From positions 1-46,441 of the forward strand of contig VXMT01000159.1 of the NCBI GenBank assembly GCA_009840965.1: a stretch of DNA of 46,441 nt, in the 5' to 3' direction. Below, piece after piece: positions 3,113-42,193 of this stretch. The first letter of the stretch is position 1. Each line of letters starts with the position of its first letter. Position numbers and translations under genes: made by a program. This stretch comes from Chloroflexota bacterium (GTDB lineage Bacteria; Chloroflexota; Dehalococcoidia; UBA2979). The notes beneath the pieces are model-generated. The model saw only the letters and a list, made by a program, of their open reading frames with translations, was not told where the DNA came from and made no database searches.

Positions 3113-3143
3113 GCGGCTGCCGCCGGCGCGGGGAGAGCCCTCG

Positions 3144-4280: not shown

Positions 4281-4293
4281 GATCCCGACTCCT

Positions 4294-4668: not shown

Positions 4669-4669
4669 G

Positions 4670-4697
4670 AGTATAAGTCATGCCTACTATAAGTCAA
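4670..4697 (-). promoter_or_regulatory. Direct-repeat operator/promoter candidate of the toxin-antitoxin operon
   Basis: On the minus strand TGACTTATA occurs twice with 16-nt spacing (plus-strand TATAAGTCA at 4672-4680 and 4688-4696), directly upstream of the toxin ATG (4668). It overlaps TTGACT, TATAGT and TATACT hexamers. This is the only AT-rich patch in the area. Confidence 0.4.
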
Positions 4698-4714
4698 GTC
4701 TTATTGAGTGCCCG

Positions 4715-5740: not shown

Positions 5741-5762
5741 CGGGGTTGCGCCTTCCGGGCCG

Positions 5763-6683
5763 CTAGCGGCCAGGCCACGGCACCCGGCGATGATCGAGGT
5801 CCGGCCCCAGCTCCGCCGGTACGCGCTCGATCAGCGCATCCAGCGTCCACGGCCCCTCGCTGTGGATGTGCCTGACCCACTCGCGCTGGTTGAGGAGGTA
5901 GACCCCCCGCCCGACCGCGCCGAAGACTTGCCCGTTGATCGCGGCGGCCTCGTCGGTCAGCAGGTAGGCGACGATCGGCGCGACGTTCGCCGGGTCCATC
6001 GCGCCGCCGATCGCCTGTTCGCTCGGCAGCGGGTCGTCCTCGCCGACCTGTCCCATCTGCTGGGCCACGATGTCGTGCATGCGCGTCGCGCCGACAGGCA
6101 CGATGCAGTTCGAGGTGATCCCGAGCGGCTCGAGCTCCTCGGCGAGGCTGAGCGCGAAGCCGATCACGCCCGCCTTCGCGGTTGCGTAGGCGACGCGGAC
6201 GCCCGCGCCGGCGAGCGCGGTGCTCGAGGAGAAGGAGATGATGGTGCCGCTGCCCTGCTCGCGCATGACCGCGGCGGCCGCCCGCGCGCAGGAGAAGTGC
6301 CCGCGCAGATGCACGCCCATCGCCCGCTCCCAGGCGTCCGGGCTCACCTCCAGCAGGCCACCGTCGACGAGAATGCCGGCGCAGCAGATCATCGCGTCCA
6401 GCCGCCCGAAGTGGTCGATGGCCGTCGCGACGATCTGCTCGCCGCCCTCCATCGTCGAGACGTCGGCGCGGCTCGGGGCGGCCTCGCCGCCCGCGTCGAT
6501 GATCTCGTTGGCGACGACCTGGGCGACGTCCTGTTCCGGACCGCCCGCGCCGTCGACGGGTCCGCCGTAGTCGGCGACGACGACCTTCGCACCCTCGGCT
6601 GCGAGCCGCAGCGCGATCCCGCGGCCGATGCCGCGCCCGGCGCCGGTAACGGCGGCCACCTTGCCCTCGAGTGGTTGCGTCAT
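5763..6683 (-). CDS. Short-chain dehydrogenase/reductase (SDR)
   Basis: 306 aa. TGAGRGIGRGIALRLAAEGAKVVV cofactor motif and YATAKAGVIGF (YxxxK). Lies 22 nt upstream of NHL paralog 1, so a likely operon. Confidence 0.85.
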   Translation of the reverse strand: MTQPLEGKVAAVTGAGRGIGRGIALRLAAEGAKVVVADYGGPVDGAGGPEQDVAQVVANEIIDAGGEAAPSRADVSTMEGGEQIVATAIDHFGRLDAMICCAGILVDGGLLEVSPDAWERAMGVHLRGHFSCARAAAAVMREQGSGTIISFSSSTALAGAGVRVAYATAKAGVIGFALSLAEELEPLGITSNCIVPVGATRMHDIVAQQMGQVGEDDPLPSEQAIGGAMDPANVAPIVAYLLTDEAAAINGQVFGAVGRGVYLLNQREWVRHIHSEGPWTLDALIERVPAELGPDLDHRRVPWPGR

Positions 6684-6765: not shown

Positions 6766-7059
6766 GTGGAGATTCGCTTTCGTAACCGGCGGTTGCAGCG
6801 GGCCTTCGAGCAGAGCAACCGCGCGGTTCGGGAGTGGGGGCCTGTCGTAGGAGAGCGCTACGTTAACCGAGTGCGGACATTGCGACGCACGCAGCGCGTT
6901 GAGTACCTCGACAAGATACGGTCGCTGAACCTCCATCCGTTGACCGGCAACCGAAGAGGTCAGCATGCGCTGAGGTTGACGGGGCAGGTGCGAATGATCG
7001 TCACGATCGAGGACGAGCAGGCGATCATCATCGAGGAAGTGGTGGACTACCATGAGTGA
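6766..7059 (+). CDS. higB: HigB-type toxin (plasmid-maintenance killer protein, RelE/ParE superfamily)
   Basis: 97 aa, GTG start. IRFRNRRLQRAFEQ N-terminus and LHPLTGNRRGQHALRLTGQVRMIV core are typical of HigB killer proteins. 8-nt overlap with the following HTH gene. Confidence 0.8.
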   Translation: MEIRFRNRRLQRAFEQSNRAVREWGPVVGERYVNRVRTLRRTQRVEYLDKIRSLNLHPLTGNRRGQHALRLTGQVRMIVTIEDEQAIIIEEVVDYHE

Positions 7060-7345
7060 GACGTATCCCTACGTGGAATCGGATCTTGCCTCCCACCCGG
7101 GTTCTTTGCTCGGAGAGGAGCTTGATGTCCGGGGGATGTCCCAGCGTGAATTGGCGCGGCAAATGGGACGGCCCTACCAGGTGGTGAACGAGATTGTCCG
7201 AGGGCGGAAGGCAATCACTGCGGAGACCGCCTTGCAGCTTGAGGCCGCACTGGAGATCAAGGCCCACATCTGGCTGGGCCTGCAGACGGACTACGATCTT
7301 GTGATGGCGCGCAAGAAGCTCGAGTCGTCCGTGCTGACGTCGTAA
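7052..7345 (+). CDS. higA: HigA-type antitoxin (XRE-family HTH antidote protein)
   Basis: 97 aa. HPGSLLGEELDVRGMSQRELARQMGRPYQVVNEIVRGRKAITAETALQLEAAL matches the HigA/VapI HTH pattern. Overlaps the higB stop. Confidence 0.8.
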   Translation: MSETYPYVESDLASHPGSLLGEELDVRGMSQRELARQMGRPYQVVNEIVRGRKAITAETALQLEAALEIKAHIWLGLQTDYDLVMARKKLESSVLTS

Positions 7346-7372: not shown

Positions 7373-8290
7373 ATGAGCTTGAAGCTGGGCATCCACACCG
7401 GGCCGCAGGACCTCTCGATGGAGGAGTTGCTGCGGGTCTGGCGGCGGGCGGACGAGGCCGGGTTCCACTGGGCATCCGTCTGGGACCACTTCTACGCCAA
7501 CCCCCTGAACCTGCGCGAGGACCCCTGCTTCGAGGGCGTCGCCTCGATGGCCGCGCTGGCCGGGGCGACCAGCAACATGCGCGTCGGCTGCCTCGTCTTC
7601 TGCGCGCTGTTCCGCAACCCGAGCCTGCTCGCCAAGGCCGCCGTCACCATCGACCACCTCTCCGGCGGGCGCGCCGAGATCGGCATCGGCGCCGGCTGGT
7701 TCGAGGAGGAGTTCCGCGAGTTCGGTTACGACTTCCCGCCGCTGGGCCAGCGCTTCGAGCAGCTCGAGGAGACGTTGCAGATCGTGCGCTCGCTGTGGCG
7801 CGATCCGGTGACGAACTTCGAAGGCAAGTACTACCGGCTCCCGGGCGCGGTCGGCAGCCCCAAGCCACTCAACCCGAACATGCGCCTCTGGGTCGGCGGC
7901 AACGGCCCGAGACGGACGCCGCGGCTCGCCGCCCAGTACGCCGACGGCTACAACGTCCCCTACCAGCCGCCCGAGGTCATCCGCGAGCGGCTGGACGCGC
8001 TGGAGCAGGCGTGCGAACGCCTGGGCCGCGACCCCGCCGAGATCGGGACCAGCGTCAACCTCCGCTTCCACATGCGCGCCCACGCCGGCGACAGCGATGC
8101 CGACCCGCCGGACAACTACGTGCCGGGCTCGATCACGGGCACGGCGCAGCAGGCGATCGACCGCATTGGCGAGTACGTCGAGACGGGCGTCGGCGGCCTC
8201 AACATCGCCTTCCGGCCGCCGATCAACTGGGACGCCTACGAGGCGTTCATCGAGGACGTGCTGCCGGTCTTCCACACCGCGAGCGCCTGA
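7373..8290 (+). CDS. Luciferase-like monooxygenase (LLM) class oxidoreductase, probably F420-dependent
   Basis: 305 aa. LGIHTGPQD...AGFHWASVWDHFY N-terminus, GGRAEIGIGAGW and LWVGGNGPRRT motifs typical of the LLM TIM-barrel. Confidence 0.8.
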   Translation: MSLKLGIHTGPQDLSMEELLRVWRRADEAGFHWASVWDHFYANPLNLREDPCFEGVASMAALAGATSNMRVGCLVFCALFRNPSLLAKAAVTIDHLSGGRAEIGIGAGWFEEEFREFGYDFPPLGQRFEQLEETLQIVRSLWRDPVTNFEGKYYRLPGAVGSPKPLNPNMRLWVGGNGPRRTPRLAAQYADGYNVPYQPPEVIRERLDALEQACERLGRDPAEIGTSVNLRFHMRAHAGDSDADPPDNYVPGSITGTAQQAIDRIGEYVETGVGGLNIAFRPPINWDAYEAFIEDVLPVFHTASA

Positions 8291-11352: not shown

Positions 11353-13170
11353 CTACGAGTCCTCGACCCAGATCTCCTCGAAGAGGTGCGACTTGACGTT
11401 GCCGCCTCCGGAGAGACCGAAGCGGTACCCCTGGACCCGGTTCTTCCAGAACATGAAGCCCTGACCGCGCAGGCCGGGCGCGATGTACATGTTCTCGAGG
11501 ATGTGGCGCTCGACGTTGCGGTACACCTCGCGCCGCTCCTCGGGATCGAGGATTCCGCGCTGCTGCTCGATCATCGCGGTCAGATCGGGGTCGTCGACGC
11601 CGTAAGGGTTCTGCGACCCGCCGGGGTGGAAGGTCTGCAGGAACGAGTGGTCCACCGTGTCGCCGCCGCCGCGCGTCGTCGACTGGAAGCGGAAGTCCTC
11701 GTTCGCCTCGGCGTGCTCCGTGGAGATGATCCCGCCGCCGGGCAGGATCTTGAGCTCGGTCTTGATGCCGATGGTGGCGAGCTCCGCCTGGAGCACCTCG
11801 TTCTGCACCACGTAGTTCTCGCCGGTGTGCTGGGGCACCTCCAACTCGCCGCCGACGGCGGCCTGCACCAGTTGGGCGGCCTGCGCGATGTCCCCCTCCT
11901 TGTCCGGGCGGAAGCCGGGCTGCGCAAGGATCTCCTCGTCCGGGATGGTGAAGTACGGGTCGCGACCGCCGGGGGTCGTGAGCGAGGCGAAGCCCTCGTA
12001 CTGGAACTCAGCAAGCGCCTGCCGGTTGAACACCAGGTGTACGGCCACGCGCAGCCGCCAGTCGTTGAACGGCTCCCGCTGGAGCTGGTAGACGACACCG
12101 CTGTAGCCGCGGACGGCGCCATCGGAGTGCCAGACCGTCAGGTCCTCCTCCTCCTGCAGCTGGATGCCGAAGCTGTTCGGCCAGACTCGCGCCGGACCAT
12201 CGATCTCGCCGGCCTTGAAGAGGCCGAACTGCACCGAGTCGTCCGGGATGATTCGGTACTCGACCGCGTCGAGGTAGGGACGGCCGGCACGCCAGTAGTC
12301 CGGGTTCCGGACGTAGCGCCCGCCGACGCCGTCCTCGTGCGACTCGGAGAGGAACGGTCCCGTACCGATCAGCGCGCGCGGGTCGTTCAGGTCGTCGCCG
12401 GCCAGCTCCGCCACCTCGGGTGAAACCATCGCGTTGAAGAGCGAGGCCAGCGCGTCGAGGAAGTTGGCGTCCGGGCTCTTGAGGTTGAACTGCACCGTGG
12501 TGTCGTCGACGGCATCCACGCTCTCGAGCGTCGAGAACAGGAAGGCGCGCGGCGACCACTCGCTGAAGGCGATGCGCTCGACGTTGAACTTGGCGTCCGA
12601 CGCCGTGAACGGGCGGCCGTTGACGGGCGGGATGTTCTGCCACTTCGCTGCCGGGTCCAGGTTCGCGACGAGCGTGGTGTCGCCCGTCCACTCCCAATCG
12701 GTGACGAGGTCGCCGACGGCGAGCAGCGTCTCCGGGTCCGGCACGAAGAGCTGGTTGCCGACCAGGCCCCAGTGGTCCTGCGTCTGGATCGGTGAGGTCG
12801 CGCGATGCGGATCCCACGAGGTGCGGAGGCGGAAGAAGACCGTGACGATCTCGCCGCCCCGCTTCTCCGCCTCGGGGTCCGGTGTCGGCGTGGGCGTGGG
12901 AGTCGGCGTGGGTGGCGCTGTGGCCCGTGGCGTCGGGGTCGCCGCAGGCGCGGCGGCAGTTGCAGTTGGCGTAGCCGTCGCCTCGGGCGTAGCCGCCGCA
13001 GCGGTCGGCGTGGCGGCGGGCGTGGCGGGTGCGGGCGCCGGCTCTTCGTCGTCGTCGCCGTCGCAGCCGATGAGCGCGGCTGCGGCGAGTCCCGCGGCGC
13101 CCACCGCGCCGCCTCGCAGCAGCGCGCGACGGCTGAGGATTCCTCGCATCTCGAACGGGCTGTATGGCAT
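11353..13170 (-). CDS. ABC transporter substrate-binding protein, family 5 (peptide/nickel/opine, Opp/Dpp-type), Tat-signal lipoprotein
   Basis: Start taken at ATG 13170 (SD GAGGGGGAG upstream). SRRALLRGG twin-arginine motif, then the lipobox-like LIGC. The mature domain has SBP_bac_5-like length and motifs. Confidence 0.8.
   Translation of the reverse strand: MPYSPFEMRGILSRRALLRGGAVGAAGLAAAALIGCDGDDDEEPAPAPATPAATPTAAAATPEATATPTATAAAPAATPTPRATAPPTPTPTPTPTPDPEAEKRGGEIVTVFFRLRTSWDPHRATSPIQTQDHWGLVGNQLFVPDPETLLAVGDLVTDWEWTGDTTLVANLDPAAKWQNIPPVNGRPFTASDAKFNVERIAFSEWSPRAFLFSTLESVDAVDDTTVQFNLKSPDANFLDALASLFNAMVSPEVAELAGDDLNDPRALIGTGPFLSESHEDGVGGRYVRNPDYWRAGRPYLDAVEYRIIPDDSVQFGLFKAGEIDGPARVWPNSFGIQLQEEEDLTVWHSDGAVRGYSGVVYQLQREPFNDWRLRVAVHLVFNRQALAEFQYEGFASLTTPGGRDPYFTIPDEEILAQPGFRPDKEGDIAQAAQLVQAAVGGELEVPQHTGENYVVQNEVLQAELATIGIKTELKILPGGGIISTEHAEANEDFRFQSTTRGGGDTVDHSFLQTFHPGGSQNPYGVDDPDLTAMIEQQRGILDPEERREVYRNVERHILENMYIAPGLRGQGFMFWKNRVQGYRFGLSGGGNVKSHLFEEIWVEDS
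12862..13062 (-). repeat. Low-complexity Pro/Thr/Ala linker-coding region inside the binding-protein gene
   Basis: Encodes DGDDDEEPAPAPATPAATPTAAAATPEATATPTATAAAPAATPTPRATAPPTPTPTPTPTPDPE directly after the lipobox Cys. The DNA contains short GGCGTGGG-type reiterations. Confidence 0.7.
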
Positions 13171-13288
13171 CTGCTCCCCCTCTTGGCCACTCGTGCTGGC
13201 CTGCGTGACCATCGATCTAGCACACCTAGACACGGCCGTAATGAGCGGCATGCTAGCAGGTTCGGCGGGCAGCCGTCGCAGCGTTCGA

Positions 13289-14179
13289 TCACTCCCCGCG
13301 CAGCCGCGGATCGAGGACATCGCGCAGCGAGTCGCCGAACATGTTGAAGGCGAACACCACCAGCGTGAGGGCCGCCCCGGGGAACAGCACCAGCGAGGGG
13401 TTCGTCGCGAAGTAGAAGCGCGACTCCTCGCCGCCGATCATGCGCCCCCACGAGGGCGTGGGCGGCGGGACGCCCAGGCCCAGGAAGCTGAGAGCGCCCT
13501 CGGCCAGGATGACGCTGCCGAGGCTGACCGTCGCGATCACGATCAGCGGCGATACCACGTTCGGCAGGATGTGCCGCACGATCACGCGCGGCGTGTTGGC
13601 GCCCACCACCCTCGCCGCCTCGACGTAGGTCGACTCCTTGACCGCGAGCGTGGAGCCGCGAACCACGCGCGAGTTGGCCGCGATCATCAGCACGCCGAGC
13701 ACGAGCGTGACGTTGAGCGCGCTCGGCCCCAGCACGGCGACCGCCACCAGCGCGAGCACGAGCGGCGGGTACGCCATCACGCCGTCCACCACGCGCTGGA
13801 TGACGATGTCGACCTTTCCGCCGACGTACCCCACCCAGAGCCCGAGGATAGTAGCCGCCCCCGTTCCGATCGCGACCGCCCCGAAGCCGATGAAGACGGA
13901 GAGTCGCGCGCCGACGATGACGCGACTGAACTGATCGCGTCCGAACGCGTCCGTCCCGAAGGGGTGGTCCAGCGTGGGGCCGGAGAGGCGGGGCCCGACG
14001 GCGATCGCAGACGTATCGAACGGCACGATGTAGGGACCGATGGCGCCGAGCGCGATGAAGACGACCACGACCACGGCGCCAAAGGTCCCCAGCGGTTGCT
14101 TGCGCAGGAAGCGCCAGAGACTTCGTCGCAGCGAGCGCACGCGGCCGCCCGGACGGGAGAGGCTCGCCGCAGCCGTCAT
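13289..14179 (-). CDS. ABC transporter permease (DppC/OppC-like)
   Basis: 296 aa, multi-TM. Conserved cytoplasmic-loop motif YVEAARVVGANTPRVIVRHILPNV. Confidence 0.85.
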   Translation of the reverse strand: MTAAASLSRPGGRVRSLRRSLWRFLRKQPLGTFGAVVVVVFIALGAIGPYIVPFDTSAIAVGPRLSGPTLDHPFGTDAFGRDQFSRVIVGARLSVFIGFGAVAIGTGAATILGLWVGYVGGKVDIVIQRVVDGVMAYPPLVLALVAVAVLGPSALNVTLVLGVLMIAANSRVVRGSTLAVKESTYVEAARVVGANTPRVIVRHILPNVVSPLIVIATVSLGSVILAEGALSFLGLGVPPPTPSWGRMIGGEESRFYFATNPSLVLFPGAALTLVVFAFNMFGDSLRDVLDPRLRGE

Positions 14180-14231
14180 CGCCCGTCACCCATCGCAGTC
14201 ACCGCTCTTCGTCCCCGCCTCGCACGCCCGC

Positions 14232-15179
14232 TCATCCGTAACGGATCTGCGGGTTGAGGAACCCGTACACGAGGTCCACCGCCAGGTTGACGAGCATCAC
14301 GAACACGCCAAAGAGGAGCACCACGCTCTGGATCATCTCGAACTCCCGCTCGCGAATCGCCTCCAGCATCAGGCGCCCGAGTCCCGGCAGGCCGAAGATC
14401 GATTCGATGATCACGCTGCCGCCGAGCAGGGTCGCAACCGAGAGCCCGATCACCGTGACCACGGGGATCGCCGCGTTGCGGAAGGCGTGCCTCGTGACGA
14501 CGCGGTACTCGGTCAGGCCCTTCGCGCGGGCCGTTCGCACGTAGTCCGCACGGATCACCTCCAGCATCTCCGAACGGACCATGCGCATCACCGTGGCGCC
14601 GAGCCGCAGCGAGAGCACGAGCGCGGGCAGCAGCAGGAGCGTGACGTTCTCGACGGGGTCCTCCGCGAACGGGACGTACGGGCGCAACGGCGTCCACCCC
14701 CACCAGATCGCCGGCAGCACGATCAGCAGCGTCGCCAGCCAGAAGTTGGGGATCGACAGCCCGCCGATCGCGAGCGAGCGGACGGCCAGATCGATGAACG
14801 AACCCGGTTTCAGCGCCGAGATCAGGCCCGCGGGGACGCCGAGGACGACCGCAAAAAGGATCGAGAGCACGTCGAGCTCGACCGTGATCGGCAGCGCCCG
14901 CCAGACGCGCTCCCGCACGCTGTCCTTGCTGAATATCGAGTCGCCGAGGTCGCCCCGCGCCAGCCCGCCGATCCAGTCGAGGTACTGCTCCAGCAGGGGC
15001 CGGTCGAGCCCGAGATCGGCGCGGATCTTCACGCGATCGTCGGCCGGCACGCCGGCCTCGGCCAGCCGGTCGTCGAGAGCGTCGCCGGGCAGCAGCCGGA
15101 TCGAGCCGAATACGATCAGCGAGATGATGAACACCGTGGGCGGGACCAGCAGGACCCGCCGCATCACGTATTCGTTCAT
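14232..15179 (-). CDS. ABC transporter permease (DppB/OppB-like)
   Basis: 315 aa, multi-TM. DYVRTARAKGLTEYRVVTRHAFRNA loop motif. Confidence 0.85.
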   Translation of the reverse strand: MNEYVMRRVLLVPPTVFIISLIVFGSIRLLPGDALDDRLAEAGVPADDRVKIRADLGLDRPLLEQYLDWIGGLARGDLGDSIFSKDSVRERVWRALPITVELDVLSILFAVVLGVPAGLISALKPGSFIDLAVRSLAIGGLSIPNFWLATLLIVLPAIWWGWTPLRPYVPFAEDPVENVTLLLLPALVLSLRLGATVMRMVRSEMLEVIRADYVRTARAKGLTEYRVVTRHAFRNAAIPVVTVIGLSVATLLGGSVIIESIFGLPGLGRLMLEAIREREFEMIQSVVLLFGVFVMLVNLAVDLVYGFLNPQIRYG

Positions 15180-15327
15180 GGGCGCGCTCCGGCGTGTACG
15201 CCGCCCGACTATACACGCGCACCGTCGCCCTCCTGCTACCCGGCGCGCCGCGATCCGCCGTCGCCGTCTCTGCTATGAATGACCGCATGCACGGCGGCCG
15301 CGCCGGGCGAGACGAGGGAGCAGCGTG

Positions 15328-16206
15328 ATGGCCATGCCCAGCGACATCGGCGTCGTCGACACGCTGCTCGGCATCCCCACTCCCGGCCGCAAGGCCTACA
15401 GCGCCTTCCGCCCGCTGCTGCGCGACCACGAGTCGCTCGAGGTCTTCGACTATCCGGTGGAGTACCAGTACCGCAACCGCCCGGACATCCCGGAGACCGG
15501 CAGCCTCGAGGAGATGGTCGAGTTCACGCTCGCCGAGATGGACAGGCACGGCATCTGGCGCGCCCTCGTCGACGTGACCGCGGAGGACGGCGCCGGCCGG
15601 CGCGCCCTCGAGCTGCACCCCGACCGCTTCAGCGGCAGCTACACCGTGGATCCCAACGAGGGCGTCCCGGCGCTGCGCAGGCTGGAGCAGGCCGTGCGCG
15701 AGCTGGGCGTGAAGGCCGCGGCGGTCACGCCGGCCTTCGTCACCCCGCAGGTGCCGATCAACGACAAGCGGGCCTACCCCGTGTACGCGAAGTGCGTCGA
15801 GCTGGACATCGCGGTCACGGTCACCTCGGGAGTGCCGGGGCCGCGCGTGCCGATGCAGGCGCAGGACGTGGCGTTGATCGACGAGGTCTGCTGGTTCTTC
15901 CCGGAGTTGCGCTTCGTGATGCGCCACGGCGGCGAGCCGTGGACGGCGCTGGCGGTGAAGCTGCTGCTCAAGTGGCCGAACCTCTACTACTCGACGAGCG
16001 CGTTCGCGCCTCGCCACTACCCGCAAGACATCATCGACTTCGCGAACACGCGAGGCGCGGACAAGGTGCTCTACGCCGGCTACTTCCCCACGGGGCTCTC
16101 GCTGGACCGCATCTTCGAGGAGCTGGCGGAGGTTCCGTTCCGCGACCGCGTCTGGCCGAAGTTCCTGCGCGAGAACGCCGTGCGCGTCTTCAAGCTGGAG
16201 GAGTAG
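15328..16206 (+). CDS. Amidohydrolase_2 family metal-dependent hydrolase/decarboxylase (ACMSD-like)
   Basis: About 292 aa. ATG 15328 lies 8 nt after SD GAGGGAG (the track start GTG 15325 is also possible). TIM-barrel amidohydrolase-like pattern (VVDTLLGIP..., FVMRHGGEPW, YAGYFP). Confidence 0.6.
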   Translation: MAMPSDIGVVDTLLGIPTPGRKAYSAFRPLLRDHESLEVFDYPVEYQYRNRPDIPETGSLEEMVEFTLAEMDRHGIWRALVDVTAEDGAGRRALELHPDRFSGSYTVDPNEGVPALRRLEQAVRELGVKAAAVTPAFVTPQVPINDKRAYPVYAKCVELDIAVTVTSGVPGPRVPMQAQDVALIDEVCWFFPELRFVMRHGGEPWTALAVKLLLKWPNLYYSTSAFAPRHYPQDIIDFANTRGADKVLYAGYFPTGLSLDRIFEELAEVPFRDRVWPKFLRENAVRVFKLEE

Positions 16207-16224
16207 CGAGGAGCCTCGCGAGGC
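16206..16224. terminator. Small palindromic hairpin between convergent genes (bidirectional terminator candidate)
   Basis: GCGAGG-AG-CCTCGC (16206-16219) overlaps the 12-bp palindrome GCCTCGCGAGGC (16213-16224). It fills the 21-nt gap between two convergent stop codons. Confidence 0.3.
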
Positions 16225-16227
16225 CCG

Positions 16228-17154
16228 TCACTCGCCCCGCAGGTAGCGTGCCGCGGCGCCCGCTGCGGAGACGGCCTCGCCGACCGCCTCAGCCACGTGG
16301 CCGCCGTAGCCACGGCGCACTGCGCCCGCCGCGAAGACGCCCGGCAGCGAGGTCGCGAACTCCGCGTCCGTGACGACGTAGCCGTCCTCGCACGCCACCT
16401 CGGGAGGCAGGAACTCGCTGTTGGGGGCGGAGCCGATGAAGGGGAAGACGGCCTTGCAGGCCAGATCGCTGAGGCTGCCGTCCCCGACGCGGCGCAGCCG
16501 CACGCCCTCGACCGCCTCGCTTCCGAGGATCGCGTCGACCTCGCAGCCCCAGACGAACTCGACGTTACCGAGCCGGGAGAGCCGGGCGACGTAGTCCTGC
16601 TTCGCACGCAGCGGGCTGCGCGCGACGACGTGGACGGTGCGGCAGAAGTCGGCGAGGACCAGCGCCTCCTGCGCCGCCGCATCACCGCCGCCGATCACGG
16701 CGACGTCTTCGCCTCGAAACAGGTGGCCGTCGCACCAGGCGCACTGCGAGACGCCCTTGCCGAGCAGATCGCTCTCCCCGGGCACCCCGAGCTGCTTGAG
16801 CCGCGCGCCCGAGGCGACGACCACGGCGCGTGCCCGGTGGCGCTCGCCGCCGGCGGTCGCGACGTGCCCGCCGCCCTCGGCCGCGAGCGTCTCGACGGCT
16901 GCCTCGATGATCACGACGCCGAGCGAGCGGCACTGCTCGACGAGGCCAACGGCGAGGTCGACGCCGGAGAGCGCGCCGGCAGCCGGGTAGCCGTCGAGTT
17001 GCTCGACGGTCGCGATCTGGCCGCCGAAGAGCGGCTCGCCCTCGAGCAGCGCCGTGCTGAGGCCGCGGCGGGCGGCGTGCTGCGCAGCGGTCAGGCCGGT
17101 CACGCCGCCGCCGATCACGAGCACGTCGTACCTGCCGTGGCGGCGCTGCACCAT
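16228..17154 (-). CDS. Low-molecular-weight thioredoxin-reductase-like FAD-dependent pyridine nucleotide-disulfide oxidoreductase
   Basis: 308 aa. FAD motif VLVIGGGVTG, redox-active CAWC (canonical TrxR has CATC) and a second dinucleotide motif VAVIGGGDAAAQEAL. Starts 19 nt after the upstream gene stop. Confidence 0.8.
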   Translation of the reverse strand: MVQRRHGRYDVLVIGGGVTGLTAAQHAARRGLSTALLEGEPLFGGQIATVEQLDGYPAAGALSGVDLAVGLVEQCRSLGVVIIEAAVETLAAEGGGHVATAGGERHRARAVVVASGARLKQLGVPGESDLLGKGVSQCAWCDGHLFRGEDVAVIGGGDAAAQEALVLADFCRTVHVVARSPLRAKQDYVARLSRLGNVEFVWGCEVDAILGSEAVEGVRLRRVGDGSLSDLACKAVFPFIGSAPNSEFLPPEVACEDGYVVTDAEFATSLPGVFAAGAVRRGYGGHVAEAVGEAVSAAGAAARYLRGE

Positions 17155-17173
17155 CGTCGGGCTCTTCCGCCCG

Positions 17174-18916
17174 TCAGCGCGTGCGTGCCGCGGCCAGCTT
17201 CGCCTCCCAGCCGGCGGGCAGCTCGATCTTCTTCGCCACCGGGTAACCGAGCCTGCCGTTGTGCGCGAAGGTGCAGGCGTTGTTGCGGAGCGGGTCGCCG
17301 CCCACGGCGATCATGAAGTCGTCGGGCTCGAAGACGATCGGCACGAGCCGGTTCGGGTCGTCCGAATCGAGGAAAACGCGCGGGATCCTCCCGAGGTTCA
17401 CCTCGGCCTCGAGCGAGCGGATCACGTGGTCGGTCCAATCTCCGAGGTAGCGCTCGAACTCCCAGGCAGGGAGCCGGGCGTGGTCGAAGAGGTACTGCTT
17501 CACGTCCTGCTTGCTCCAGCCGGCCTTCGCGATCGTCTGCGCCAAAATCGGGCTGAGCACCAGCAGCGGCCGCAGCGAGCCCATCGACTTGCCGACGGTG
17601 AAGATCAGCTGCCAGGTGTTCTGCTTGAGCACCGCGTCGGCGATGTAGGGCAGGACGCGCTCGGGCGTGTCGCCGTAGACCGAGGCCATCATGTCGCTGC
17701 CGGTGTAGCGCGCGATGGTGACGGTGTTGTCGCCTGCCTCGAAGCCCATCTCCACGCTGTTGGGCGGCCAGCCGATCCCGGCGAGGACGTCCTCGTTCTC
17801 CGCCAGTACGACGCGCCAGGTGTTGCCGAACGTCGCCTTGTCGTTCTTGTGCAGCAGGAAGCCGGCGACGTTGCGCAGGTAGAGGCGCCAAAAGCGCCCG
17901 ACCGAGGTGTTCGCCTGGAAGCCGTCGCGCAGCGCGCCCTGCTCATAGTTGAAGCCCAGCTCCTTGATGATCGGGCCGTTGAGCGTGATCAGCGTCTCGG
18001 CGCCGGGCGTGTTGCCGCTGTGCTCCACCCCGTACTCGGGATCGGCCATCGCCTCGGCGAGGGCGACCAGCACCGGCATGTACTCCGGCCGGCAGCCCGC
18101 CATCACGCCGTTCACCGCGATGCTCCAGATCGTGACGGCGCGGTTGTCCGCGAGGATCACGCCCAGCACCTCGTCCGGGTCGCGATCCGTGAAGGCGAGG
18201 AACTCCTCCACCTTCGCGATGGTCGGCGGCACGACCGGCAGGCCGTCGCTCCACTCGCACTCGGTGAAGTAGCGGTTGACCTCCTCGAAGCTGCCCTCGA
18301 AGACGATCTCGCGCGGCGAGGGCTCGTCGAACGCGGGGGCGTCCTCGGGAGCCTCGAGCAGGTTGGCAACGACCGCGTCGAGGGTCACATCGAGGACGTT
18401 TTGCTTCATCTCCTCGTCGCTCTGGTTGCCGACGTGGCCGGGCACGAGCGCGAGGGGCAGGTTCGGCAGCCCGAGGCCGGCCGAGGTCGTGCCGGCCTGT
18501 CCGATGAAGCCCTCGCAGACCAACGAGGAGGTAGGGACGCCCGCCAGCTCGCACGCCGCGCTTGCCCGCATCACGGCGGGCGTGCAGCTGCCTCAGCAGC
18601 CCATCCCGGAGATGGCGGCGTCGACCCCCAGCTCCTTGAAGCGCTGCGGGAGCGAGGCGAGAACCTCGCGCTCCTCGGCGCCGTGCGTGGTGCCGAACTC
18701 GCGCCAGCTCACGAAGCGCACGCCGGGGTAGCGGGCTTCGAGCTGCGGTTCGAGCAGGTCGAAGACCTCGTCGCCGCGGTACACGTAGTCCCAGAGCTGG
18801 GCGATCGTCTTGCCGGCCAGGGTGTCCAGCCTCGGCGCGAGCGGCATCGGCTGGAGCTGGCGCTTGCTGCGGGGCCAGACGACCGGGTAGCGGCCGCCGT
18901 CGGTGCTGTTCGTCAT
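17174..18916 (-). CDS. Probable selenoprotein: UGSC-motif protein fused to a large uncharacterised C-terminal domain (580 aa if TGA 18593-18595 is read as Sec)
   Basis: Track ORFs 18593-18916 and 17174-18574 share one frame and are separated only by one TGA plus 6 sense codons. The junction reads ...AAISGMGC-[TGA]-GSCTPAV.... A strong SD (GAGGGAG, 7 nt) precedes ATG 18916, and none precedes the downstream ORF. A stem-loop follows the TGA. Confidence 0.65.
18551..18585 (-). other. Candidate bacterial SECIS stem-loop
   Basis: mRNA +11 to +45 from the UGA is GCACGCCCGCCGUGAUGCGGGCAAGCGCGGCGUGC. Either 7 bp GCACGCC/GGCGUGC (+3 bp) or 6 bp GCCCGC/GCGGGC with apical loop CGUGAU. A GU-containing loop lies about 20 nt from the UGA. 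Confidence 0.45.
18593..18595 (-). other. In-frame TGA, candidate selenocysteine codon (residue 108)
   Basis: Plus-strand tca at 18593-18595. Flanked by a Cys codon on the 5' side and Gly-Ser-Cys on the 3' side. Confidence 0.6.
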
Positions 18917-18943
18917 GTCGTGGCTCCCTCGAACCGGCGGCAG

Positions 18944-19004
18944 CCCGCAGGCACGGCTCGCTGCCGCCGTCAGAATCCTACCCGCTGCGGGTTGTGCCTG
19001 CGGG
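18944..19004. promoter_or_regulatory. Nested inverted repeats in the divergent intergenic region (operator or 5'-UTR structure candidate)
   Basis: CCCGCAGGCAC (18944-18954) and its exact reverse complement GTGCCTGCGGG (18994-19004), 39 nt apart. The 13-bp palindrome ACCCGCTGCGGGT (18980-18992) lies between them. Confidence 0.3.
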
Positions 19005-19051
19005 CCGCGCCGGATCGGCCAATGCGCCCTCGCTCGCGTGGTACCGTCGCC

Positions 19052-19885
19052 ATGTCCGACGAGGAGGAGAGCGCCATGGAGGAACTACAGGGAAGGGTTG
19101 CAGTCGTAACGGGCGCCGGTAGCGGTATCGGGCGCGGCATCGCGGACGCGCTCGCCGATGCAGGTGCGCGCCTCGTCATCGCCGACATCGAGGGACGGGC
19201 GGCCGAGGCGGTCGCAGCCGCGATCCGGGACGCGGGCCACCCGGCGATCGCCCGGCACGTCGACGTGACCGACGGCGACGACATCGAGAGCCTTGCCGAG
19301 GCTACGATCGAGGCGTTCGGAGCGGTGCACGTGCTGGTCAACAACGCCGGCGTGATGACGATGGGGCCTCTGGCAGAGGCGACCGAGGCCGACTGGAACT
19401 GGCTGTTCGAGGTGAACGTCCACGGCATGGTGCGCGGCGTGCGCGCCTTCCTCCCGCACCTGCGCGCAAACGCGCCCGCGCACATCGTCAACACAGTCTC
19501 GATGGCCCCCGTCGCGCCACGGCTCGACGGCGAGATGGGGATCTACACGGCCTCGAAGGGGGCCGCGATCGGGTTCTCCGAGGTGTTGCGCGCGGAGCTG
19601 GCGGACGAGGAGATCGGCGTGACGGCGCTCTGCCCCGGTCCGGTGGCGACACGCCTCTACGAGGCCGAGCGCAACCGGCACGCCCGCTTCGGCGGGCGCA
19701 CGGGGATGGAGGCGCCCGCACGCACCCACCGCCAGCAGCCGGACGAGGTCGGCGCGATGGTCGTCGACGGAATCCTCCGCAACGCCGGGTACGTCTTCAC
19801 GGACCTCGAGTCACGCGGTCGCATCGAGGCGCGCGAAGCGCGGATCCGCGAGGCGCTGGACGACCTCGAGCGGGGCGGCGCGTAA
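19052..19885 (+). CDS. Short-chain dehydrogenase/reductase (SDR)
   Basis: Real gene within the 943-aa shadow ORF. ATG 19052 (alternative 19076). VTGAGSGIGRGIADALADAGARLVI, NNAG and YTASKGAAIGF motifs. Confidence 0.85.
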   Translation: MSDEEESAMEELQGRVAVVTGAGSGIGRGIADALADAGARLVIADIEGRAAEAVAAAIRDAGHPAIARHVDVTDGDDIESLAEATIEAFGAVHVLVNNAGVMTMGPLAEATEADWNWLFEVNVHGMVRGVRAFLPHLRANAPAHIVNTVSMAPVAPRLDGEMGIYTASKGAAIGFSEVLRAELADEEIGVTALCPGPVATRLYEAERNRHARFGGRTGMEAPARTHRQQPDEVGAMVVDGILRNAGYVFTDLESRGRIEAREARIREALDDLERGGA

Positions 19886-21184: not shown

Positions 21185-21796
21185 CTACTCCCCGTTGCGC
21201 CGGGGCACCTCGAGCTGCTCCATCACCTGCTCGAAGACCGCGTACTCCTGCGCGCCTACCACGGCGTCGCGCTCGTTGAAGATGAAGGTCGGCACGCCGC
21301 GCACCCCGATCTCGCGGGCGATCGTGATGCGCTCGTCCACCTGCTCCCGGTAGCGCCCCTCGTCCAGCACCGCTCGCAGTTCGTCGCGGTCGAGCCCCTG
21401 CTCTCCGCCGATCTCAAGCAGCGTCTCGAGGTCCCCGATGTCGGCCTCGCCCTCGAAGTGCGCGGCGAAGAGCGCACGGTGCAGGCCCTCGTCGTCGTGG
21501 CCGATCTCCTGCGCGTACTCGGCGGTCTCGAGGGCGAGGTGGGAGTTCGGCGTGAAGCGTCGCCCGCGGCGGAAGGTGATGCCGGCGCGTTCGCCTCGCA
21601 GCTCCAGGTGCGTCGGCGGATCGTCCGGCTTCGTGCGCGGCTCGCGCTCACGGCCCTGGGGCGGAATCGAGGGGTCGAGCAGGTACGGCCACCAGTGCAC
21701 GTCCAGCTCGTACTCCCGCCGCAGCTTCTCGACCTCCACGAGGCCGACGTAGCACCACGGTCAGATGAAGTCGCTGACGATGATGAGTGAGGTCAT
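21185..21796 (-). CDS. Probable selenoprotein: DsbA/FrnE-like thiol-disulfide oxidoreductase with U-P-W-C active site (203 aa if TGA 21761-21763 is read as Sec)
   Basis: The track ORF (21185-21739) lacks the family N-terminus. Extending upstream in frame gives MTSLIIVSDFI-[TGA]-PWCYVGLVEVEKL..., i.e. the family CPWC motif with TGA at the first Cys. An ATG with SD-like GGAAGGCGAGGG lies upstream. The C-terminal GVRGVPTFIFN...GAQ is typical of DsbA-fold proteins. Confidence 0.7.
21729..21747 (-). other. Candidate bacterial SECIS stem-loop
   Basis: mRNA +17 to +35 from the UGA is UCGGCCUC-GUG-GAGGUCGA, an 8-bp stem (one G-U pair) with a GU-containing apical loop about 22 nt after the UGA. Confidence 0.4.
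21761..21763 (-). other. In-frame TGA, candidate selenocysteine codon (residue 12)
   Basis: Plus-strand tca at 21761-21763. Followed by Pro-Trp-Cys codons. Confidence 0.65.
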
Positions 21797-21938
21797 GACG
21801 GCCCTCGCCTTCCGGCCCGCGTCCGCTCACCTCAGTATGACGCCTCGGGATCGCGGCTGCGCGCTCGCCCGGCATCGCAAACGGCGTCGCTGCTACCATC
21901 CACGCCCCACCGCCACGGCCCGAAGGGAGCGAGAGCGC

Positions 21939-22874
21939 ATGAACTTCGGACTGTTCCTGATCGAGTCGCCGCACCGCGCGCACGTCGGGCCCAGTGGACG
22001 CCACGCCGCGCCCGGACAGGGCGCCGCGCTCACCTCGCCCGAGTACCTCGGCGGCCTCGCACGCTTCGCCGAGGAGGTCGGGTTCGACTTCGTCTCGTTC
22101 CCGGAGCACGTGGTCCTGCCCGTGGACTACGAGTCGCGCTACCCGTACCAGCAGTACGAGGGCGGCGACTTCAAGCGCTACCCCTACGACGAGACGGCGT
22201 TCCCGGAGCCGGTCACCGCCCTCACCTTCGTCGCCGCCGTGACCGAGCGGCTGGAGTTGGGCACCTCGGTGCTGATCCTGCCGCAGCGCAACCCGGTGAT
22301 CCTCGCCAAGCAGCTCGCCACCCTCGACGCGCTCTCGCACGGCCGCGTCAGCCTGACGGTCGGCATCGGCTGGCTGCGCGAGGAGTTCGCCGCGATCGGC
22401 GTGCCCTGGGAGCGCCGCGGGCGGCGCGCGGACGAGTACATCCAGGCGCTGCGCAAGCTCTGGCGCGACGAGGTGTCCACCTTCCAGGGCGAGACCGTCT
22501 CCTTCGAGCGTATCCGCTGCCTCCCGAAGCCCGCGCAGCCGGACGGCCCGCCGATCATCGTCGGTGGGCACAGCCTCGGCGCGGCTCGGCGCGCGGGACG
22601 GCTCGGCGACGGCTTCATGCCGCTCGGCCTCGGCGGCTTCGGCGGCGAGGACATCACGCCGCTGCTCGAGGCCTGGCGCGAGGCGGCGGCCGCCGCCGGA
22701 CGCGAGCAGGCGGCGACGGAGCTGCGCATGGGCGCCGCGCCCGACCTCGAGTCGGTGCAGCGCGTCGCCGAGCGCGGCGCGACGCGCATCCACTTCTCCT
22801 TCTCCGCGCCAAGCCTCGACGAGGCGAAGCGCGAGCTGGAGCGGATCGCCAACGAGGTGATCGAGCGCTTCTAG
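21939..22874 (+). CDS. LLM class oxidoreductase, probably F420-dependent
   Basis: Start at ATG 21939 (SD GAAGGGAG upstream), 311 aa. FAEEVGFDFVSFPEHVV, GRVSLTVGIGW and PIIVGGHS motifs. The 5' extension of the track ORF is rejected. Confidence 0.8.
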   Translation: MNFGLFLIESPHRAHVGPSGRHAAPGQGAALTSPEYLGGLARFAEEVGFDFVSFPEHVVLPVDYESRYPYQQYEGGDFKRYPYDETAFPEPVTALTFVAAVTERLELGTSVLILPQRNPVILAKQLATLDALSHGRVSLTVGIGWLREEFAAIGVPWERRGRRADEYIQALRKLWRDEVSTFQGETVSFERIRCLPKPAQPDGPPIIVGGHSLGAARRAGRLGDGFMPLGLGGFGGEDITPLLEAWREAAAAAGREQAATELRMGAAPDLESVQRVAERGATRIHFSFSAPSLDEAKRELERIANEVIERF

Positions 22875-28112: not shown

Positions 28113-28991
28113 CTACGCGCCGCCGACGCCGAGCGGGCGCATCACCTCCTCCGCGAAGCGCTCGATCGCCTCGATCTTCGCCTCGACGGGCGACTCCTCG
28201 CCGGCCGGTTCCCAGGCGGGGATGCGGATACCGTCGAGGCCGGCGCGGCCCAGCTCGTCCAGCACCTCCGCGGTGGGCCACTCGCGGGGCTGGATCGTGA
28301 TCTCGAAGTCCGCCGGGTCTCGCCCGTTCTCCTCGAGGTACCCGTGCAGGCGGTCGATGACCTCGGGCACCGCGGTCGCCGAGGACCCGCCGCCAACCCA
28401 GCCGTCGGCGATGCGGGTGGCGCGCCGCAGCGCGATCTCGCTGCGGCCGCCGAGCGTGATCGGGATCGGAGCGGGCGGGACGGGCGCCATCGAGACGGCG
28501 TCGAAATCGAACCACTCGCCGTGGTGCTCCACCCAGCCGCCCGCCCAGAGGCGCCGCAGCACCTCGATCATCTCGGCCATGCGGCGGCCGCGGCCGGAGA
28601 AGGCCTGCCCGGTCTGGTCGAACTCCTCGCGGCACCAGCCCGCCCCGAGCCCGGCCACGACGCGTCCCTGGGTGAGCACGGCGGCGGTCGAGATCGACTT
28701 GGCGACGGTGAAGAGGTCGCGCGCGGGCGCGATGTAGACGGCGGTCATGCAGCGCAGCGTCGTCGTGACCGCGCCCACCGCCGAGGCGAGCGCCCAGGGG
28801 TCGGGCCAGTGCGTATCGGGGCGCCAGAACGGCACGCCGTCGGCGGTGCCGGGGTAGGCGGGGACGATCTCCTGCGGGTAGAAGAGATGGTCGGGGATCG
28901 CGAGGCCCTCGAACCCGAGCCGCTCCGACGCCTGTGCGAGCGGGAGCACCTGCTCCGTCGGCATGAAGCCAGTGAACTGCCAGAATCTCAT
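28113..28991 (-). CDS. LLM class oxidoreductase, probably F420-dependent
   Basis: 292 aa. LGFEGLAIPDHLFYP, GRVVAGLGAGW and PITLGGRS motifs. Confidence 0.8.
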   Translation of the reverse strand: MRFWQFTGFMPTEQVLPLAQASERLGFEGLAIPDHLFYPQEIVPAYPGTADGVPFWRPDTHWPDPWALASAVGAVTTTLRCMTAVYIAPARDLFTVAKSISTAAVLTQGRVVAGLGAGWCREEFDQTGQAFSGRGRRMAEMIEVLRRLWAGGWVEHHGEWFDFDAVSMAPVPPAPIPITLGGRSEIALRRATRIADGWVGGGSSATAVPEVIDRLHGYLEENGRDPADFEITIQPREWPTAEVLDELGRAGLDGIRIPAWEPAGEESPVEAKIEAIERFAEEVMRPLGVGGA

Positions 28992-29057: not shown

Positions 29058-30116
29058 ATGCAATTCGGCTTCTGCTACATCCCGGACTACTACCCGGACC
29101 TGCACGGCGAGTTCCGCGACTGGTACGAGCGGCTGCTCTCCGAGTGGGCCTGGGCCGACGAACTCGGCTACGACTCGGTATGGATCGCGGAGCACCGCTA
29201 TCCGGGCTACGCCTTCTCCTCGACACCGGTCGTGTTGCAGGCAATGGCCGATCGCACGAAGCAGATTCGCATCGGGACGGCCGTGGCGCTGATCACCCAG
29301 CGGCACCCGGTGCTGAGCGCCGAGCACTGGGCCGCGGTCGACGTGCTCTCCGGCGGACGGCTCAACTTCGGCATCGGCCGCGGCATCTCGGAGTACGACT
29401 TCGAGACCGTCGGCGTGCCCTCGGAGGAGTCGCGCGAGCGCTTCGAGGAGGCGTGGGAGGTGATCCGCCGGCTCTGGACCGAGGACGAGGTGGTGCACAA
29501 CGGCAAGTACTGGTCGTTCGACGTGCACACCCTGCGGCCGCGCCCGCTGCAGCAGCCGATGCCGCCGATCTACGTCTCCGCGCTGGCGTCGCCGGAGACG
29601 TACCGCTGGGCCGGGCGCAACGGCTACCACCTGCTGGTCGCGCCGTTCCTGCTCGACACCAACGAGCGGCAGCGCGGCTTCCTCGAGATCTACCGCGAGG
29701 AGCTGGCCAACGCCGGGCACGATCCCGCCGCGTTCGAGGTCCTCGGGACGTACCACCTGAGCATCGTCGAGCGGGAGAGCCAGCTCGAGGGGGCGGACCA
29801 GTACTTCTACAACTACCTCAACTTCATCCAGAACACCGGGAAGGAACGAACCGGCGTGAAGGAGGCGCTGGCCGGCGAGGCCAACCGCGCCTACCAGACC
29901 GGCGAGGGCCTGTACAAGGACGTCGAGGCGATGCGCCGTCAGCGCACCGTGATCGGCACCCCGCAGCAGTGCATCGAGCTTATGTCGGAGCTGGCCGAGG
30001 CATGCGGCATCACCGGCTGGTCGTTCGAGATCAGCTACGGCGGCATGCCCCCCGAGATGACCCGGGACCAGATGCAGCTCTTCGCCGAGGAGGTCATCCC
30101 CGTCCTGCGCCCGTAG
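29058..30116 (+). CDS. LLM class flavin-dependent oxidoreductase
   Basis: 352 aa. ADELGYDSVWIAEHRY, GRLNFGIGRG and PPIYVSA motifs. Confidence 0.8.
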   Translation: MQFGFCYIPDYYPDLHGEFRDWYERLLSEWAWADELGYDSVWIAEHRYPGYAFSSTPVVLQAMADRTKQIRIGTAVALITQRHPVLSAEHWAAVDVLSGGRLNFGIGRGISEYDFETVGVPSEESRERFEEAWEVIRRLWTEDEVVHNGKYWSFDVHTLRPRPLQQPMPPIYVSALASPETYRWAGRNGYHLLVAPFLLDTNERQRGFLEIYREELANAGHDPAAFEVLGTYHLSIVERESQLEGADQYFYNYLNFIQNTGKERTGVKEALAGEANRAYQTGEGLYKDVEAMRRQRTVIGTPQQCIELMSELAEACGITGWSFEISYGGMPPEMTRDQMQLFAEEVIPVLRP

Positions 30117-38840: not shown

Positions 38841-38853
38841 GCGCGGCAGTCTG

Positions 38854-39888: not shown

Positions 39889-40003
39889 GTCGTGGTACTC
39901 GCCTTTGCCTTTAGTCAAGCGTAGCCACACGCCGCGTTCGCGGCCAGCCGCGCCCTGGTGGGCGCGTCCGCCACGAGCCGGCAACCTCAGTCGCGATCGC
40001 GCG

Positions 40004-42028: not shown

Positions 42029-42193
42029 CGGTCCCGCTCCTAACCCATCACCTTCAAGCGTAGCCACCGAGGTCACGCCCCGCAAGGCGATCCCGTACGG
42101 GTGCGACGGAGGAAATATGTCTCGTATCCTAGAAGGGACACCAGCCGGCCAGGGAGCCGTCGCCCCTCGATTGCGGGTGAGGAGTGGCGAACG
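42029..42193. promoter_or_regulatory. Divergent intergenic region between the P450 fusion and Rieske genes (promoters/operator expected)
   Basis: 165 bp. Contains the 10-bp palindrome CCCGTACGGG (42092-42101) and an AT-richer patch GGAAATATGTCTCGTATCCTAGAA. No specific site can be assigned. Confidence 0.3.

Follow-up and report, generated by a model that had tools for sequence, protein, structure and literature searches.

Does the UGSC selenoprotein have a reductase of its own? In aquatic metagenomes few selenoproteins are as abundant as those of the UGSC family, to which neither a function nor a partner has been assigned since 2005-2008 (PMC2398784, PMC1976440, PMC13188914). The question is raised by a locus in a metagenome-assembled genome of the Chloroflexota, on contig VXMT01000159.1 (46,441 nucleotides, about 70% GC; hereafter the window, meaning the whole stretch analysed), in which the gene for a fusion of UGSC with a second domain, 'Unknown_1', is followed on the same strand by a gene for a flavoprotein related to low-Mr thioredoxin reductase (TrxR). 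The unit is laid out as follows.

17174..18916, minus strand: gene for the UGSC-'Unknown_1' fusion selenoprotein, 580 amino acids plus stop, one UGA read through in a continuous frame
17155..17173, minus strand: intercistronic spacer of 19 nt, with a Shine-Dalgarno (SD)-like GGAAGAG 7 nt before the ATG of the TrxR-like gene
16228..17154, minus strand: gene for the TrxR-like FAD/NAD(P)H disulfide reductase, 308 amino acids, a class 1 member of the UGSC-linked subfamily
16211..16226, minus strand: small hairpin with a 6-bp stem and a 4-nt loop, between the stop codons of the TrxR-like gene and of the convergent Amidohydro_2 gene

An earlier note on this DNA, made from the sequence alone, had placed the TrxR-like gene 19 nt past the stop codon of the fusion gene (17176-17174) and on the same strand, and this is read directly from the sequence. 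It had also described a hairpin after the TrxR-like stop. The hairpin does exist, but it is weak: it lacks a U tract, is not called by a terminator scan, and folds no better than shuffled sequences (z = -0.67; 48 of 200 shuffles fold as well). A further SD-like sequence, GAGGGAG, lies upstream of the start of the fusion gene at 18916. The GC content at third codon positions (GC3) is 0.93-0.96 in all three minus-strand pieces, that is, the two parts of the UGSC gene and the TrxR-like gene, which is the value of real genes, and the long plus-strand open reading frames (ORFs) that overlap this region are high-GC shadows. The two genes are most likely co-transcribed.

Conserved pairing of the fusion and the flavoprotein

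Since the two genes are linked when the search is begun from either side, in varying gene order, with signs of co-diversification and with canonical TrxR as a negative control, the UGSC fusion and the TrxR-like protein almost certainly work together as a conserved functional unit. From the reductase side, all five sampled homologues (49-61% identity) adjoin a split UGSC gene. A metagenome scan with an alignment of the flavoprotein gave 80 loci. Sorted by the motif that follows the GGGDxA strand, these form three classes. In class 1, the type found in the window, the motif reads x-R-[S/G]-x-[LF]-[RK]-A-[RK], and a UGSC fusion gene is adjacent in every one of the 15 loci with enough flank. Class 2 combines CADC at the redox site with V-H-R-G-x-x-F-R-A. 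Class 3 is canonical, with HRRDxxRA and CATC, and a UGSC fusion is adjacent in none of its loci, while trxA adjoins the reductase gene in four.

From the selenoprotein side, genome loci with sufficient flank were examined for a TrxR-like gene within 2 kb and in the same orientation. Such a gene is present in 14 of the 26 loci whose fusion is at least 55% identical to that of the window, and in 2 of 36 loci encoding more distant fusions. The order of the genes is not fixed: the fusion precedes the TrxR-like gene in the window and in loci L011, L025 and L083, a paralogue of the C-terminal part of the fusion lies between the two in ten loci, and the TrxR-like gene comes first in L003, L004, L006, L084, L086 and others. 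Spacers are 17-28 nt in this last order and 17-50 nt wherever the genes abut. Across 26 paired loci, the pairwise identities of the one protein correlate with those of the other (r = 0.88; Mantel test, 0 of 2000). The pairing is carried by Chloroflexota, Alpha- and Betaproteobacteria and Acidobacteria, and more weakly, with more divergent reductases, by Actinomycetota. The co-occurrence that the earlier note had put up for checking is thus borne out in both directions and across several phyla.

The actinobacterial examples are worth describing. In Nocardioides sediminis (L055, 6758-7603; a fusion with cysteine in place of selenocysteine) and Actinomycetospora aeridis (L076, 9419-10084; a Sec form) the fusion gene abuts a gene for a very divergent TrxR-like protein (32-34% identity), with a degenerate nucleotide motif (VVGDDEWTA in L076) and, in L055, a partly deleted domain.

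When the neighbours of 87 loci were clustered, only the TrxR-like gene, the Unknown_1 paralogue and Bug/TctC genes recurred. The Bug/TctC genes near betaproteobacterial fusions were set aside as functional partners, the family being hugely expanded in that lineage and hence part of its background.

A proposed redox module

What the two proteins would do together can be approached through the following features.

18365..18883, minus strand: UGSC domain, residues 12-184 of the fusion (PF24696, E 1.9e-29), carrying U108-x-x-C111
17177..18319, minus strand: C-terminal 'Unknown_1' domain, residues about 200-580, with the superfamily-wide motifs W-x-DGLP-x-x-PPT and A-x-N-[AG]-V-M-A-G-C
18092..18094, minus strand: codon of Cys275 (NGVMAGC), a cysteine of the C-terminal domain that is a candidate for a catalytic or resolving role
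16732..16743, minus strand: redox-active CAWC of the TrxR-like protein, C138 and C141, both invariant in 27 subfamily members

We consider it reasonably probable that the two genes encode a self-contained redox module, in which an NAD(P)H-driven TrxR-like protein re-reduces the Sec/Cys centre of the fusion (Sec, selenocysteine). The TrxR-like protein would be a specialised paralogue of low-Mr TrxR, passing electrons from NAD(P)H through FAD to C138/C141. The resulting dithiol would in turn re-reduce Sec108/Cys111 of the UGSC domain, this being the presumed direction of flow, and Sec108-x-x-Cys111 would cycle between selenol/thiol and selenenylsulfide forms. Finally, the C-terminal domain, perhaps through Cys275, would bind a substrate and presumably reduce it. 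Because no dedicated thioredoxin is encoded nearby, reduction of the fusion by the TrxR-like protein is probably direct.

The UGSC domain scores 103.4 bits against PF24696, for which the cut-off is 25. Against NCBIfam NF041046, a model of the stand-alone form of about 147 residues, the fusion scores 51.7 bits, below the cut-off of 125. All 17 full-length fusions match NF041046 (best E 1.2e-28), and the first of them, the only one compared with the cut-off, likewise falls below it at 46.6 bits. The fusion form is a subfamily distinct from the stand-alone form. A 'UGSC/Unknown_1 fusion' was noted in 2008, its function unknown (Zhang and Gladyshev 2008, PMC2398784), and the window protein belongs to the same family as the UGSC proteins of PF24696/NF041046 and probably represents that same fusion.

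More distant relationships are suggested by matches that are weak but recurrent. Among the 17 full-length members the NCBIfam models for PrdB (7), GrdB (4), GrdH (3) and GrdF (2) appear, all of them UxxC selenoproteins (PMC2398784, Table 2), and because of this recurrence the UGSC domain is indicated to be distantly related to the UxxC selenoprotein B family (PrdB/GrdB). The window fusion itself scores 17.4 bits against the PrdB model, far under its cut-off of 300, and so falls outside selenoprotein B proper. In an AlphaFold2 model of a full-length cysteine form, P0072 (pLDDT 79, pTM 0.82), the UGSC domain is a flavodoxin-like alpha/beta structure, and the sole, weak Foldseek matches of this domain are to flavodoxin-like domains; the 2008 paper, by contrast, had proposed a thioredoxin-like fold (PMC2398784). 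Searches of PDB chains with a profile of the fusion and with the UGSC domain found nothing.

The C-terminal domain has no sequence match in Pfam, NCBIfam or the PDB. Modelled alone from the window sequence (pLDDT 84, pTM 0.87), it gave, like the P0072 model, no Foldseek match in the PDB at E <= 1e-3; the best matches, to class I fumarate hydratase and to Toblerone-fold cyclic amide hydrolases, were rejected as too weak at TM scores of 0.17-0.30. The family is nevertheless a large one, with 5133 clusters at 50% identity in a profile search, and among 145 homologues, whether fused, paralogous or stand-alone, 140 have a cysteine at the position of Cys275. Longer relatives with several domains (P0294, P0313, P0312, P0357 and others), in which UGSC is joined to pentapeptide, Cu_amine_oxidN1 or UBA-like pieces, were uninformative.

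A paralogue of about 400 residues, with about 30-35% identity to the C-terminal domain, no UGSC domain and a conserved N-terminal LW-x-x-PAGQRA-x-G-x-WIDDTL extension, is encoded between the fusion and TrxR-like genes in many proteobacterial loci. It was seen in L002, L009, L012, L017, L019, L020, L021, L024, L038, L081 (5791-6996), L092, L112, L134 and L144 and is absent from the window.

Certain relatives of the fusion hint independently at a requirement for a thiol reductant. The Cys forms of gut and anaerobe lineages are 634-676 residues long and carry signal peptides; in two Bacillota loci a DsbD_TM (CcdA) gene comes after the gene for the exported protein, and L060 has a TlpA/ResA-like redoxin there as well. 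In L126 (7352-8791, minus strand) a stand-alone Unknown_1 protein bears, in the place of UGSC, an N-terminal thioredoxin-like domain with CPTC, which at 24.3 bits lies just below the cut-off of Pfam Thioredoxin_2. Cys-form loci with signal peptides include L059 (7500-10286) and L060 (5217-8669), as well as L062, L063, L066, L069, L071 and L080.

Several points weigh against the redox module as proposed. Around half of the close fusion genes lack a TrxR-like neighbour within 8 kb; in those genomes the partner must therefore be unnecessary, lie elsewhere, or have its part taken by the housekeeping system. For a domain that is modelled as flavodoxin-like and not as a thioredoxin fold, it would be unusual to be recognised directly by a TrxR homologue. 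The C-terminal domain is without known relative, and its assignment as a substrate reductase would follow from conserved cysteines only. Co-diversification of the two proteins may in part reflect shared species phylogeny. Lastly, the recurrent embedding of the genes in selA-selB/selD clusters fits a role in selenium handling equally well.

Link to the selenocysteine machinery

This last point deserves closer attention. In 29 metagenome loci a class 2 TrxR-like gene lies directly after selA-selB, giving a three-gene arrangement exemplified by L106 (selA 976-2472, selB 2469-4481, TrxR-like 4495-5397), of which no description was found in the literature searched. In about half of the class 2 loci with enough flank, a UGSC fusion (about 40% identity) or a stand-alone Unknown_1 protein is encoded within 1-3 kb. 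Class 1 pairs also occur in sel clusters: L084 (3656-11820), L087 and L093 read selA-selB-TrxR-like-UGSC, with selD near in L084 and L093; in L004 and L006 selD lies divergently upstream (about 5620-6680, minus strand), and in L024 selA-selB lies downstream (12899-16188).

The class 2 loci of this kind include L091, L094, L103, L106, L108, L110, L111, L116, L120-L122, L124-L128, L130, L138, L142, L146 and others. Downstream of sel-linked TrxR-like genes, pairs of AtuA-like (PF07287) and DUF4387 genes recur together with MmgE/PrpD and Bug/TctC genes (L128 6817-8519, L142 5784-7753, L111 about 6868-7080, L116, L120, L124, L138), and in L045 (85-893) a gene just upstream of a transporter and a UGSC fusion has, by eye, DUF4387-like sequence.

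Such linkage may mean that the module acts in selenium metabolism itself. The TrxR-like and UGSC/Unknown_1 proteins would then belong to the selenocysteine-utilisation trait, reducing selenite or selenotrisulfide to selenide for SelD, or carrying or recycling selenium, instead of forming a reductase for an ordinary metabolite. There is precedent for such chemistry, as the TrxR and thioredoxin of E. coli reduce selenite and are required for selenite assimilation into FdhH. Equally, UGSC may rank as the main selenoprotein of these bacteria, and the linkage may mean only that, since sel genes tend to lie beside the gene for the foremost selenoprotein of their genome, as is the case for fdh. A selenium-handling role also sits uneasily with the Cys-only forms, such as the exported proteins of gut anaerobes and those of Curtobacterium, for which a part in Sec synthesis is unlikely, and with the 46-kb window, in which neither a sel gene nor a tRNA-Sec was found. 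On balance this explanation is possible but rather unlikely. The broader idea to which it leads is put forward just as tentatively, namely that the flavoproteins without the HRR motif, those of class 1 together with the CADC proteins of class 2, are an unrecognised accessory of the selenocysteine trait that reduces, delivers or salvages selenium for SelD with UGSC/Unknown_1.

The TrxR-like flavoprotein and its electron donor

The protein labelled 'FAD-dependent oxidoreductase' in GenBank (MYE46525.1) has the low-Mr TrxR architecture with CAWC that the earlier note had ascribed to it. The FAD fingerprint GxGxxG is present as GGGVTG at residues 15-20, the redox-active cysteines stand in C138-A-W-C141, GGGDAA follows, and the FAD 'GD' motif reads AAGA-V-R-x-G-Y-G. 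The residues between the cysteines vary within the subfamily (CATC, CASC, CAHC, CAFC, CADC), and CAWC was rejected as a family signature on that ground. Its closest PDB relatives are low-Mr TrxRs, with a full-length alignment to 2q7v at 195 bits. Against the TrxB equivalog model TIGR01292, however, it scores 251.6 bits, below the cut-off of 343.45, as do the other UGSC-linked (210-230) and sel-linked (238-256) members, whereas canonical controls from the same scan reach 376-401. Models of AhpF are its second-best family match (182 bits).

These scores bear on whether the fusion is reached by way of a thioredoxin. It is improbable, to our minds, that the flavoprotein is a divergent ordinary TrxR which reduces a thioredoxin encoded elsewhere and through it the UGSC centre, or, in the extreme, that it is the housekeeping TrxR and the adjacency is meaningless. 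The complete architecture and the bona fide TrxRs among its best PDB relatives agree with such indirect coupling, as does the reduction of GrdA via thioredoxin and not directly (PMC10880999). The subfamily also has the CDG-x-[FL]-[FY] loop. This loop contacts thioredoxin in E. coli TrxR. On the other hand, no TrxA-like gene was found within about 4-8 kb of UGSC-linked or sel-linked TrxR-like genes, while canonical TrxRs adjoin trxA, and the score lies under the TrxB cut-off in a way that those of the canonical controls do not. The housekeeping version would further be at odds with the finding that every sampled member of the subtype adjoins UGSC.

The identity of the electron donor turns on a single region.

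16600..16692, minus strand: pyridine-nucleotide site of the TrxR-like protein, GGGDAA at residues 155-160 and ARSPLRAK at 178-185 (16623-16600)

The earlier note had read ARSPLRAK as standing in place of HRRDxFRA, and the HMMER alignment to the TrxR of Deinococcus radiodurans, in which 'vva.rsplrak' is aligned with 'VIHrRDTLRAN', agrees. The change from HRRDxxRA to A-RSPLRA removes the histidine (H175) and one arginine, leaving R179 and R183, that is, two of the three phosphate-binding arginines, with GGGDAA also present. Throughout the subfamily G155, G157, D158, A160, R179 and A184 are invariant, S180 is kept in at least 90%, position 183 is basic (R/K), and no acidic residue replaces the histidine. 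Because GGGDAA, R179, S180, R183 and A184 are retained, NAD(P)H is a plausible donor, and NADPH, or NADPH and NADH alike, appears the likeliest. The loss of the histidine and one arginine may shift the preference between NADPH and NADH and points to no non-nucleotide donor.

The non-canonical electron donor that the earlier note had proposed finds little place here. A reductase independent of pyridine nucleotides, fed by ferredoxin, F420 or another carrier as in FFTR, DDOR and DTR, is very doubtful, despite the altered HRR motif, the detectable kinship with FFTR (6gna, 5e-22) and DDOR (5j60, 3e-35), and a window rich in genes for LLM-class (luciferase-like) oxidoreductases, one of them confirmed by Pfam, so that F420 chemistry may be present. 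What identifies the FFTR-type, ferredoxin-dependent enzymes is that GxGxxA and HRRxxxR have both been lost (PMC10880999), and NADPH-dependent canonical TrxRs (1e-56 to 1e-48) are much closer relatives of the window protein.

Reading of UGA 108

The fusion exists as a single protein if one in-frame UGA is translated, and two features of the gene concern this codon.

18593..18595, minus strand: selenocysteine codon UGA, residue 108, the sole in-frame TGA, in the context GMGC-U-GSCTP
18564..18581, minus strand: hairpin GCCCGC-CGUGAU-GCGGGC resembling a selenocysteine insertion sequence (SECIS), beginning 11 nt past the UGA, with a 6-bp GC stem and a GU-containing loop

In GenBank the gene appears as two hypothetical proteins, MYE46527.1 (107 residues) and MYE46526.1 (465 residues, begun at an internal Met). 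The comparison draws on 80 genome loci in which a relative of the fusion is encoded. The homologous codon is TGA in 57 of these, TGC or TGT in 13 and unreadable in 10. The Cys forms occur as single ORFs of 563-588 residues (P0072, for example, has 586). The SECIS-like stem is conserved: across 30 homologues the paired cells make up 94%, whereas a slid partner gives 31-52%, and synonymous sites are invariant across the hairpin. Covariation is limited to one pair, the outer G-C being A-U in four sequences. At the 70% GC of this DNA the single sequence folds no more stably than shuffled ones, which leaves only the comparative analysis informative, and no Rfam model exists for the hairpin. Because TGA exchanges with Cys codons among homologues and the downstream hairpin is conserved, UGA 108 is a genuine selenocysteine codon. 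The opposite case, that the TGA is a true stop between two unrelated small genes of 107 and 465 residues, is highly improbable, for although the public annotation, in-frame GTG/ATG codons 6-7 codons past the TGA and the lack of Sec machinery in the window agree with it, the Pfam UGSC alignment runs across the TGA, conservation (GSCTPAV) continues from there up to the annotated start, and both the codon counts and hairpin above and the existence of single-ORF Cys forms speak against it.

The motif at residues 107-111 was given as C-U-G-S-C in the earlier note. This is correct for the window sequence, but the cysteine preceding U is not conserved, and across the UGSC family the redox motif is [U/C]-G-x-C.

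Comparison with known systems

The earlier note had stated that no system of this composition has been characterised, and no paper describing one was found. The literature found on UGSC likewise makes no mention of a reductase partner, the paralogue gene, exported CcdA-linked forms or linkage to sel clusters. The nearest analogue is glycine reductase. The grd operon of C. difficile (grdABCDEX) carries trxA3/trxB3, which reduce the selenoprotein GrdA (PMC10880999), so that the analogy drawn in the earlier note stands for glycine reductase; for proline reductase, which it had named in the same breath, it does not, the electron-transfer partner there being PrdC. Like glycine reductase, the window unit has a Sec-containing component encoded beside a dedicated flavoprotein of the TrxR family, a UGSC domain with weak matches to the selenoprotein B family and the same UxxC motif (PMC2398784), and an expected flow from NAD(P)H to flavin, dithiol and selenenylsulfide. 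Unlike it, the unit has no GrdA, GrdC/D, PrdC or pyruvoyl proprotein (GrdE/PrdA) among its neighbours in the window and no thioredoxin gene, its Sec domain is fused to a domain of about 380 residues without known relative, and its reductase lacks HRR and scores under the TrxB cut-off. Its carriers are mostly aerobic heterotrophs (Chloroflexota, Proteobacteria, Acidobacteria) and not Stickland fermenters.

The AhpF/AhpC pair offers a second parallel, in that a specialised TrxR homologue with an HRR motif altered relative to TrxB is encoded beside the one protein it reduces. AhpF, however, has an N-terminal shuttle domain with a double thioredoxin fold, which the 308-residue protein lacks, and the partner of the latter is not a peroxiredoxin. 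Canonical TrxB (2q7v, 1tde) shares the two-domain architecture, the FAD motif, a CxxC in the NADPH domain and GxGxxA. It differs in the HRR motif, which is x-R-[S/G] in the UGSC-linked proteins, in the 'GD' motif, in family score and in genomic context, since the TrxR-like genes adjoin UGSC or sel genes and not trxA. FFTR (6gna), DDOR (5j60) and DTR have in common with the window protein a TrxR fold with a non-canonical nucleotide region. In those enzymes, though, GxGxxA and HRRxxxR are gone (PMC10880999), whereas GGGDAA and two basic residues persist here, and the similarity of FFTR and DDOR to the window protein is far lower than that of NADPH-dependent TrxRs. Finally, CcdA with ResA/TlpA would supply thiol reductant to an exported client, the Cys-form fusions of Bacillota, in parallel to the cytoplasmic TrxR-like partner; these genes are absent from the window and were seen at two loci only.

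Surroundings of the unit in the window

The unit is flanked by the following features.

15325-16206, plus strand: Amidohydro_2 gene, convergent with the TrxR-like gene, with a 21-nt gap between the stop codons
18917..19051: divergent intergenic region of 135 bp between the UGSC gene and the SDR gene, presumed promoter region
19052-19885, plus strand: SDR gene, divergent from the UGSC gene, confirmed by Pfam

A promoter scan of 18917..19051 found no sigma-70 consensus. The neighbours of the unit in the window are Amidohydro_2, ABC transporter, SDR, MFS, DSBA-like and LLM genes. The LLM-class genes lie at 7373-8290, 21765-22874, 28113-28991, 29058-30116 and 31323-32630, of which only that at 21765-22874 is confirmed by Pfam. 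The window further contains SDR, CoA-transferase-like and molybdopterin-hydroxylase-like genes, and the surroundings of the unit look catabolic. A divergent pair of SDR and MFS genes adjoins the unit, and a similar pair flanks it in L086 and in the locus of P0218, but this recurrence gave no conserved cluster in the neighbour clustering.

Farther away, the region 38000-43000 has a GC content of about 0.65 against about 0.70 elsewhere and could be an island or integration site. It contains a tRNA-Arg(CCG) at 42352-42433 (plus strand), overlapped by a minus-strand ORF of 966 residues (40004-42904) that is probably spurious, with an atypically low GC3 of 0.81. An Rfam scan of the whole window found nothing.

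Implications

As the public annotation gives the fusion as two hypothetical proteins, the module is invisible to routine pipelines. The fusion and its partner offer a route to studying a selenoprotein that, among those still uncharacterised, is one of the most common in water and soil. A dedicated reductase would make the function of the fusion testable with two soluble proteins, through co-expression of a Sec-to-Cys variant, a read-out of NAD(P)H oxidation and screening of substrates, and cultured carriers exist in Vineibacter terrae (L038), Actinomycetospora aeridis (L076) and Nocardioides sediminis (L055, Cys form). The Stickland-type arrangement of a selenoprotein B-like domain with its own TrxR also occurs well outside the anaerobic fermenters, fused to a new, putatively catalytic domain. 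If the tentative link to selenium handling were true, one of the most abundant orphan selenoprotein families would gain a function in selenium metabolism, and the repeated placement of this flavoprotein family with selA-selB raises the possibility of an unrecognised step in the selenium metabolism of bacteria.

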